This document shows, piece by piece, positions 39,001-41,057 of a DNA stretch of 64,000 nt. Origin of the DNA: Trypanosoma brucei (lineage: Eukaryota). Made by a program: the position numbers. Every line of letters begins with the position of its first letter. Position 1 is the first letter of the stretch. Location: positions 3,328,001-3,392,000 of the forward strand of contig CM000208.1 of assembly GCA_000002445.1 (NCBI GenBank). Reading direction: 5' to 3'.

Positions 39001-41057
39001 GAGCGGAGTTTCTTCACGTACTCGTCGTGTTTCTTCCTTACTTCAATAATCTCCTCTGACTTTTTGGAGCGCATTTCTTGTTCAGCCTTCCGTTTGTCAT
39101 CAAGCTCCTTGAGCCTCTGTCGGATCTCGTCGCGCTCCTTGTCAGGCTCACTTTTTGGTCCCAACGAAGCACGTAGCTCCTTGATTTGGGCGATAAGAGC
39201 CCCTTTCTCCTGCGAAAGTGCTTTCATCTTGGTTCGGTGCTCCATTACATCTGGTCTCGGAGGCGCCCCCGGAGCTGTCATCCACCGCGGTTGAGGACGC
39301 CTTTCCGTCGGCGCGGGCGCAGCTTCAGGTGCCGTCTCTGTCTTGCTCATTGCTGCTGATGCTTTTTGGCAGAACCTTTCCCCCTTGGTACACTAATCGT
39401 GCAAATTAATGAGGCAACTTCCTCAATCTAATTATATTATTCTTATTTTGTTCCTTTTTCCACTCTTACAACGTATTCCCTTATTGTTGTCAATTAATCG
39501 CCTCTCCAATGCAACTTTAGCCAACTCTCTGCCCCCTTTGAAATTCCTTGCTATTGTTGTCTAAACAGAGTTATTAGTTGACCAAGAGAAGAGGCACTCT
39601 GATTCGTGGGAGGTGAGCAAAAGCGCATACAGAGCAGAAAAAAAAAGGGAGACAATACCCCTAGAGGATGCCAAACACATGGCGCTATCGTCGGCGAGCT
39701 TTTGCGTTGCTGCGCCACGTATTGGCCCGCATAAATTCAAATGGTGGCAATAGGAGTTGTGCGAGTACACATGCGACTACCATAAACTTGATGACGCAGC
39801 CGGTGGAGTTTTCCTGCTTCCCCCTCTCCTCTTCCTTTGAGAATTCCCCTGAGTTGCCAAACCGATCCACTGGTGTGCACCTCCGGATGCGGAGCGGTGC
39901 AAAGCAGCCCAAACAAAAGACATGTGTACAGAAATAAAAGGGTAATGCCCACCCCCGCCTCGCCCCCACATTACATAAATCGGGAACATATTCTTTTCCT
40001 TCTTCTTCATGTACTCCAGCATGTAAATAAATGGATGTGCTTACGTATTCTTTCGCTGAGAGTGTGCTGCAAAGGGCATCTAAAGGGGCAGATGTGATTA
40101 TATCCGCTTCCTCAAACAAATTTTAGTGGAGGTGGCGGAAACATAACGAACATGTTCCGTCCCCTTCCACACCCCAGGAACAGCGTTCCCATCAAGTTCA
40201 CAATTCATAAGGTGAAAAATATTCCCCTTGCATTTTACCTTTGCTTTTAATCAGGCACCATAAATGTTATTTGGAACTCCATTTAGTATTATAATTCTTC
40301 CCTTTTCCTTCATGCAGATTAGTGTGGCACAAAATATTTGTACAGAAAAAGTCCAAAGATACCTCCAAACAATGGAATAACTAGTGGAACCCAGAAATAA
40401 TAATTTGCATGTGAAAACACCTTCCCACCAAAGTGAATGGTCTCCGTGAGTGGGTAAGAAACTTCCTCTCAGGGTCCCTATCCATCGTGCTGACGAAAAT
40501 TACGAAAATAAACGAAACCTTCAATGTAATATTTACTGGTTAAACTGGCTGCCGTTTTCTCTTTTCCCACGCGAATTCGGAAGTCGCTCTCCACCTCCCT
40601 TTGTTTGTGTGGAGGAGCTCCAGGTATCAAACAAAGTAAAAATAAAGAAAGCTCATTAAAATCTATAATAACAATCAAATATTCCCCAATAGAATGCACC
40701 ACCACCTCATTTGTAAAACAGAAGTGAATCATCAAGTGCGAATTTGCCCCGGCATACTATCCCTCACCTCCCAACACAACAAAATCAGCGGTTAAAACAC
40801 ACATGCAAACAGCTGTGGGATGAAGAGAAGTAAAGTGCAACAACAAAGAGATGTACGACATGAGTGAAGTAAACCGAGATTCACCTTAACGTCTTCCCAA
40901 AATATGTATTTAAATGACGTTAGGGGTGCAACGAGGGATTATCCAAGTGGTTCAGCGCTATTCAGTGACAAATTTTATGTGTGTATTCTTCCATTGGTGC
41001 CCTGAGCGAACATAATCGGGGTGGCTCGAAAAAAAAAAACACATGAACAAGCGCGCG

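Follow-up and report, generated by a model that had tools for sequence, protein, structure and literature searches.

An old AQP3 relic in Trypanosoma brucei and its probable role as third recombination partner of AQP2 and AQP3

Chimerisation and deletion of the aquaglyceroporin genes AQP2 and AQP3 on chromosome 10 of Trypanosoma brucei were reportedly described by Baker in 2012. The subject of the present analysis is a short relic of AQP3 at the same locus, contained in a window of 64,000 nucleotides (the whole stretch of DNA analysed; GenBank assembly GCA_000002445.1, contig CM000208.1, positions 3,328,001 to 3,392,000 of the forward strand) that is TREU927-like and in which all genes of the locus lie on the minus strand; coordinates refer to this window unless another sequence is named. 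In the published events (Graf 2013, PMC3794916; Pyana Pati 2014, PMC4183442; Munday 2014, PMC3922157, and 2015, PMC4356943) homologous recombination or single-strand annealing between direct AQP repeats generates in-frame chimeras with loss of wild-type AQP2, leading to melarsoprol-pentamidine cross-resistance. Whereas the published schemes involve two partners, AQP2 and AQP3, the relic would act by the same mechanism and with the same outcome as a third, non-coding partner 0.9 kb further downstream. To serve as a third homology block would be its sole demonstrable activity, and the relic is most likely a third recombination partner at this clinically important locus.

Gene conversion templated by pseudogenes is known from the mosaic VSG genes of T. 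brucei, which derive from VSG pseudogenes, and from the human pair CYP21A1P and CYP21A2, in which the former converts the latter. The AQP relic resembles these systems in that a dead copy appears to trade short patches, in one direction or the other, with a functional paralogue, the candidates being Lys271 of AQP3 and positions +38 and +42 of the 3′ untranslated region (3′UTR), and is unlike them in that the informative sites number two to three and no selective benefit is known. Truncated, non-processed gene relics at the edges of tandem arrays provide a further comparison, as here too homology reaches beyond the gene into its non-coding flank, little of the coding sequence survives and the start codon is lost, and the fragment adjoins its parent in the same orientation and is fixed in the species. 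It departs from such relics in that no spacer at the locus resembles another and in that the relic is 98% AQP3-like while the next 14 nt are only 57-71% alike. Gene loss by FRDg/FRDm2 recombination in T. brucei (PMC8065229) likewise involves a selected deletion between neighbouring paralogous sequences that yields a chimeric gene; both partners are intact genes in that account, whereas the downstream partner here is a 222-bp relic.

The relic, at positions 40211-40432, is a direct repeat of the minus-strand 3′ end of AQP3 (41351-41572; blastn E=3e-109), and it lies downstream of AQP3 in direct orientation at an offset of 1,140 bp. The initial annotation had described these 222 bp as base-for-base identical and as comprising the final 38 codons of AQP3; the repeat is real and direct and does join the AQP3 3′ coding end to 108 bp of 3′UTR, but it carries 5 mismatches in 222 bp (97.7% identity), its perfect run is confined to 128 bp (40303-40430), and its coding content is 36 true codons plus a junction codon and the stop. 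Four of the mismatches (40302, 40277, 40251 and 40232) fall in the 3′UTR part (40211-40318, minus strand), which represents the first 108 nt of the AQP3 3′UTR, and the fifth (40431) lies in the junction codon. The coding part (40319-40429, minus strand) consists of the stop codon at 40319-40321 and 36 codons at 40322-40429 equivalent to AQP3 G269-H304, covers the second half of transmembrane helix 6 and the C-terminus, and is the same as TREU927 AQP3 throughout.

Homology ends at the proximal breakpoint (40430-40432, minus strand), where the junction codon reads TTT against TAT in AQP3 and identity drops to background within 3 nt (40430-40433); microhomology at this point, if any, is at most about 4 nt (CTTT). 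At the other end, where the DNA after the relic reads TTATGAATTGTGAAC and the unique flank past its 3′UTR bases is TTATGAATTGTGAACTTGATGG, a tail of 14 nt past the high-identity block (40197-40210, minus strand) retains faint three-way similarity, with 10/14 matches between relic and AQP2, 9/14 between AQP2 and AQP3 and 8/14 between relic and AQP3; the chance of at least 10/14 in an anchored comparison is about 8e-4. No significant AQP-like sequence was found upstream of the relic in 40433-41350 (AQP2 and AQP3 as queries in tblastn, and blastn at word size 7; best E 0.14), and the relic contains neither a start codon nor an NPA motif, as had been noted from the sequence together with the abrupt end of similarity. 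The in-frame open reading frame (ORF) is closed by a stop 12 codons upstream of the junction, and the relic peptide matches positions 191-222 of the 222 in the Pfam MIP family (PF00230) at 17 bits, below the cutoff of 25. The full ORF, six transmembrane helices and two NPA-type motifs of a functional MIP/aquaglyceroporin gene are thus missing, and the relic is unable to encode a channel. As AQP3 homology runs from 111 nt of coding sequence (including the stop) into 108 nt of 3′UTR, in the manner of a non-processed truncated pseudogene, the relic is a non-processed, 5′-truncated AQP3 pseudogene fragment; a decayed full-length pseudogene is ruled out by the negative upstream searches, in agreement with the truncation first proposed. 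It is a real, conserved and unannotated object of an ordinary kind.

The AQP2/3(880) allele of T. b. gambiense is the point at which this relic meets the published record. In Pyana Pati 2014 (PMC4183442) all strains gave a 1.5-kb locus amplicon reading as AQP2/3(814), a second chimera, AQP2/3(880), was present in all strains after ORF cloning and by restriction fragment length polymorphism (RFLP) and was placed "possibly outside the known locus", and neither AQP2_R nor 3.2-kb products were obtained from the Mbuji-Mayi strains. The 814 and 880 chimeras were taken as heterozygous alleles in Munday 2015 (PMC4356943), and a 2025 paper (PMC12691586) still presents 880 in the original terms. The published locus is a 3.2-kb amplicon that ends at AQP2/3_R, before the relic, and no mention of the relic was found in the searchable literature.

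The loci compared with the window, retrieved by exact protein look-up, were those of T. b. gambiense DAL972 (L001), T. b. equiperdum IVM-t1 (L002) and T. equiperdum OVI (L003 and L012). According to Graf 2013 (PMC3794916), the AQP3-type 126 bp of the 814 chimera are absent from DAL972; in this genome the AQP3-type C-terminus occurs only in the relic, the gene in the AQP3 position having an AQP2-type coding 3′ end. Nt 869 of the DAL972 relic (L001 11980) is C, a site that is T (Val) in AQP2, in DAL972 AQP3 and in the AQP3-derived part of the 814 chimera; every available T. b. gambiense AQP3-type 3′ end has T at 869, and C is found in the relic only. The corresponding position of the window relic (40389, nt 869 in AQP2 numbering) is T. 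In silico, a crossover between DAL972 AQP2 and the relic at any point of nt 841-868 gives an ORF of 939 nt that translates to exactly the AQP2/3(880) protein (AIT42450.1), and the product also carries the published "T869C point mutation" and both sites seen in the published RFLP, AvaI at 826 and the extra SduI at 866. The deletion amounts to 2,911 bp in DAL972 and removes the AQP2_R and AQP2/3_R sites, and the reverse primers used for ORF cloning and RFLP anneal to the relic and, in DAL972, to the relic only; the forward RFLP primer AQP2-RFLP-F is GAACTCATTTCCACCGCAGT. Because the fusion deletes both locus-PCR reverse-primer sites, 880 would be absent from the locus amplicon and yet present in genomic DNA.

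These observations suggest a mechanism in which AQP2 would recombine with the homologous relic downstream of it, so that the remainder of AQP2, the whole AQP3 gene and the spacer would be deleted and an in-frame AQP2::relic fusion formed. This fusion would be the published T. b. gambiense AQP2/3(880), and the melarsoprol/pentamidine-resistant Mbuji-Mayi strains would be compound heterozygotes carrying AQP2/3(814) over AQP2::relic. The relic lies on the same strand as its partners and its homology, 222 bp at 98% to AQP3, is within the range used in T. brucei, where homologous recombination employs substrates of 50-200 bp with a plateau near 200 bp and rarely 25 bp (PMC1904282). A PCR chimera of the 814 allele and the relic was considered and cannot provide the AQP2-type nt 814-840 of the 880 allele, and conversion without deletion is contradicted by the lack of AQP2_R and 3.2-kb products in these strains. 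The combination of an old AQP3 relic, gene conversion with AQP3 and an AQP2::relic deletion corresponding to AQP2/3(880) is considered likely. The fuller proposition, in which 880 is an AQP2::relic allele unseen by locus PCR, wild-type AQP2 was lost by two independent events and the relic donated sequence to AQP3 alleles, is favoured by a small degree.

Conservation of the relic in other genomes bears on its age. It is present at the orthologous place with an identical junction, CACTTT|GGTGGGAAGG, in DAL972 (L001 11939-12163, preceded by the AQP3 3′UTR and spacer at 10916-11938), in IVM-t1 (L002 7944-8168) and in OVI (L012), so that its occurrence in other subspecies and strains, which the initial annotation had proposed to check, is confirmed. 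Three differences between relic and AQP3 in the 3′UTR (AAAGGG/AAAAGG, TGATT/TGGTT and AATGC/AACGC; 40302, 40251 and 40232) are common to the window, DAL972 and IVM-t1, and whole-locus identity across the compared genomes is 98.4-99.6%. Since the fragment recurs with this junction in all of these genomes, and with the three diagnostic differences in DAL972 and IVM-t1, the relic predates the radiation of the T. brucei group and was fixed before the subspecies split, and the view that perfect identity points to a recent event is contradicted by both the 97.7% identity and the shared junction. A homology search with the 49-aa relic peptide for further strains or transcripts in public assemblies gave no candidates, and exact look-ups of a 33-aa ORF and ten small ORFs around the relic found no match there.

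The short-read assembly of OVI is interrupted at the repeat, with L003 ending (6746) 29 bp past the AQP3 stop, and in L012 (560-1130) the 5′ junction of the relic is joined to an AQP3-type 3′UTR and the start of the spacer, followed by 10 N and the distal end of the relic. This arrangement is a repeat-induced mis-scaffold, and the break and the mis-scaffold at the relic indicate that the repeat disturbs assembly. The gene in the AQP3 position of DAL972 (L001 10001-10915, 304 aa), of which Graf 2013 (PMC3794916) says only that DAL972 "differs in TbAQP3", is a mosaic: its N-terminus, patches in its middle and the 3′UTR behind it are AQP3-type, whereas its NSA/NPS motifs and the 3′ end of its coding sequence are AQP2-type. 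In T. vivax a single AQP is found at the syntenic locus, with no partial copy or internal repeat. This gene (L004 10001-10882) lies between a SEC13-like gene and the genes for the nuclear segregation protein and pyruvate kinase, which is the AQP2/AQP3 position, and is equally close to TbAQP3 (67.1%) and TbAQP1 (66.7%). Synteny thus makes the AQP locus on chromosome 10 look like the ancestral one, a status that the literature gives to AQP1.

Concerted polymorphisms suggest that the relic exchanges sequence with the AQP3 3′ end by gene conversion. At position +38 of the 3′UTR (40281 and 41421) relic and AQP3 agree within each genome, sharing T in the window and A in DAL972 and IVM-t1, and at +42 G is constant in the relic, with A in the AQP3 of the window and G in AQP3 elsewhere. 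At the codon for residue 271 (40421-40423 in the relic, 41561-41563 for K271 of AQP3) Lys (AAG) is present in the relic of four of the four genomes and in AQP3 only in TREU927 and IVM-t1. Glu is encoded by the AQP3 alleles of OVI, one T. b. brucei AQP3 (CAG27022), T. evansi sequences and the stretch of the T. b. gambiense 814 chimera that derives from AQP3, and AQP2 and AQP1 also have Glu at this position. The coding identity between relic and AQP3 in the window arises because TREU927 AQP3 has Lys271 like the relic, most other AQP3 alleles having Glu. Lys271 of AQP3 may represent a relic-to-AQP3 gene conversion that altered the protein, and the relic is possibly a sequence donor to AQP3, with Lys271 in TREU927 and IVM-t1 and perhaps the Ala codon of the B48 laboratory chimera as candidates.

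The origin of the relic is constrained by the DNA around it. Four unique segments of the locus, one lying upstream of the AQP2 unit, one between AQP2 and AQP3 (spacer sp1), one between AQP3 and the relic (spacer sp2) and one after the relic, are mutually unlike, with Smith-Waterman scores at shuffle level: sp1 and sp2 score 13.5 (shuffled mean 12.9) and have no blastn match, and sp2 and the DNA after the relic score 13.0 (shuffled mean 13.0), with only an 8/14 match in their first 14 nt. Apart from microsatellites, no spacer sequence is repeated elsewhere in the window. Because the spacers are mutually unrelated, a three-unit tandem array with internal deletion does not fit, sp1 and sp2 being non-homologous, and neither does a simple tandem duplication confined to the 3′ end of AQP3, for which sp2 and the DNA after the relic would have to be homologous. 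The proposal that the fragment is the scar of a deleted third tandem AQP copy is accordingly not demonstrated, the 0.9-kb spacer being unlike both the AQP2-AQP3 spacer and the DNA after the relic. An ancient 3′UTR element common to AQP1 is rejected, since AQP1 similarity stops at the stop codon and its 3′UTR has nothing in common with the 3′ block. The relic may be either an old unit of which the remaining 222 bp have been held AQP3-like by gene conversion, or a later ectopic copy of the AQP3 3′ end.

Transcript evidence places the relic relative to the neighbouring mRNAs. Logan contigs of the nuclear segregation protein gene (ERR7929157-64) start at 39559-39608, and three of the five starts, at 39559-39561, directly follow an AG (TTTAG) preceded by polypyrimidine tracts at 39584-39594 and 39636-39652 (minus strand). 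A spliced-leader (trans-splice) acceptor near 39560 is therefore probable for this gene (the feature spans 39559-39652), with a 5′UTR of about 210 nt. With this acceptor the next mRNA would begin no less than 650 nt downstream of the relic, and the relic is probably inside a long AQP3 3′UTR. A 29-nt core of the 3′UTR, in sense orientation TGGA[A/G]TTCCAAATAACATT[T/G]ATGGTGCCT, is nearly invariant in AQP2, AQP3 and the relic (43167-43195, 41393-41421 and 40253-40281, respectively), with 20-30% divergence in the surrounding UTR, and may be a candidate cis-element. There is no Rfam match for the relic and only sub-threshold chance matches elsewhere in 39000-45000, and RNAalifold (-7.65 kcal/mol, positive covariation term, one compensatory pair) gives no supported structure.

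Several other accounts of the relic have to be weighed. An origin in this strain by some recent event, be it unequal crossover, deletion or conversion, would agree with the 128-bp perfect run and with a coding part identical to AQP3 in the window. It is rendered very improbable by the four further mismatches in the 3′UTR part and by the occurrence of the fragment, its junction and the three diagnostic differences in DAL972 and IVM-t1, with the junction in OVI as well; copying of TREU927 through reference-guided assembly is an unlikely source of this agreement, as the other assemblies have single-nucleotide polymorphisms of their own. Duplicated or collapsed reads, the artefact that the initial annotation itself had raised, could be suspected from the way in which the OVI assembly breaks and is mis-scaffolded exactly at this repeat, but they are refuted by the presence of the fragment with its own diagnostic bases in three independent chromosome-scale assemblies, and this account is scarcely credible. 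Insertion of a 5′-truncated AQP3 cDNA by a retrotransposon reverse transcriptase would explain the 5′ truncation, and the fact that all three 3′ blocks end 108 nt past the stop could suggest an mRNA 3′ end. Yet neither a poly(A) tract after the relic nor a flanking direct repeat or target-site duplication was found, faint homology runs about 14 nt past the block end, and AQP2 and AQP3 also have 5′ flanking DNA in common, which argues for duplication at the DNA level and makes such a processed retrocopy highly improbable. It is also rather improbable, to a lesser degree, that the 108-nt 3′UTR block was kept by selection for mRNA processing or stability, either in the long AQP3 3′UTR or in a neighbouring transcript, with the coding piece as a passenger. 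The nearly invariant core, the retention of the relic across subspecies and the probable location in the AQP3 3′UTR implied by the next acceptor all speak for such an element; with 98.4-99.6% identity over the whole locus, however, conservation needs no selection, Rfam and structure prediction lend nothing, and the AQP1 3′UTR is without the block.

The most serious rival is that the relic is an inert, neutral leftover and that 880 arose either by recombination of AQP2 with an 869C haplotype of AQP3 or by a de novo T869C mutation, and the points that favour it are among those that weigh against an AQP2::relic fusion. The homology between AQP2 and the relic is short and mismatched, at about 90% identity with unbroken matches of 39 and 26 bp in the window and of 28 bp in DAL972, and is a poor recombination substrate, although T. 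brucei does recombine stretches of 25-50 bp at a low rate (PMC1904282). The 869C (Ala) is also present in the B48 chimera (AFM80512.1, P0133) of T. b. brucei, which has AQP2-type sequence from nt 880; as this context is unexplained by a single relic crossover, 869C may not be restricted to the relic. The Ala codon in the FW[V/A]P motif of B48 could itself stem from allele polymorphism or from multi-template repair involving the relic. For the Congolese strains the DAL972 relic sequence is assumed from the clonality of group 1 T. b. gambiense, the chromosomal structure of the 880 allele is one that we infer from sequence, and the case for gene conversion comprises two to three sites. Furthermore, Graf 2015 (PMC4443405), using an AQP3-type reverse ORF primer, did not find 880 and called 814 homozygous. 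Set against the inert leftover are three observations: among all available T. b. gambiense AQP3-type 3′ ends the relic alone has C at 869; a product of AQP2 and AQP3 would retain AQP2/3_R and give double peaks on sequencing of the 1.5-kb amplicon, of which none are reported; and the fusion with the relic yields the protein and both RFLP sites exactly, with no extra mutation. On balance the leftover is unlikely, and the AQP2::relic deletion continues to be the preferred explanation.

The locus is recombination-prone, as the initial annotation had held. From the 5′ side of transcription, and all on the minus strand, it comprises the SEC13-like WD40 gene (44800-45936), AQP2 (CDS 43231-44169; 312 aa, NSA/NPS), which is the common wild-type AQP2, AQP3 (CDS 41459-42373; 304 aa, NPA/NPA), identical to TREU927 XP_827896, the nuclear segregation protein gene (CDS 37911-39350; 479 aa), identical to TREU927 XP_827895, and the pyruvate kinase gene (35142-36641). 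The AQP3 3′ block (41351-41572, minus strand), parent or partner copy of the relic, contains the final 36 codons with their stop and the adjoining 108 nt of 3′UTR. A diverged copy after AQP2, already seen in the initial annotation, occupies 43106-43340 on the minus strand and is about 80% identical to the relic; within the coding part AQP2 and the relic share 101/111 positions and match without interruption over nt 841-879 and 902-927. The unique spacer sp2 (40433-41345, minus strand; about 0.9 kb) separates the AQP3 3′ block from the relic and holds the compound microsatellite (GC)n(CA)n(TA)n that had been noted there (about 41051-41097) as well as the binding site of the locus-PCR reverse primer AQP2/3_R (41273-41294); the AQP2_R site is at 43076-43096. 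The pyruvate kinase gene, single in the window, is flanked by direct repeats of 191 bp with 96% identity (34688-34878 and 37112-37302, 2,424 bp apart), and DAL972 has two tandem copies (L001 15602-19525), the extra 2.3 kb corresponding to window position 37362/37363. The pyruvate kinase array beside the AQP locus thus shows copy-number variation by unequal crossover.

Primers or guides placed on the "AQP3" 3′ end also match the relic and, in DAL972, the relic only, and short-read assemblies break or mis-join at the repeat. As a third homology block outside the 3.2-kb amplicon, the relic would make some rearranged alleles invisible to locus PCR, so that strains may be mis-scored as homozygous. 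It also offers a concrete, testable explanation of the AQP2/3(880) "T869C" allele. If this explanation is true, the two homologues of the resistant Mbuji-Mayi strains would differ, one bearing 814 and the other the relic fusion, in place of homozygosity for a single chimera, which suggests that resistance in a clonal diploid parasite arose from two independent deletions.

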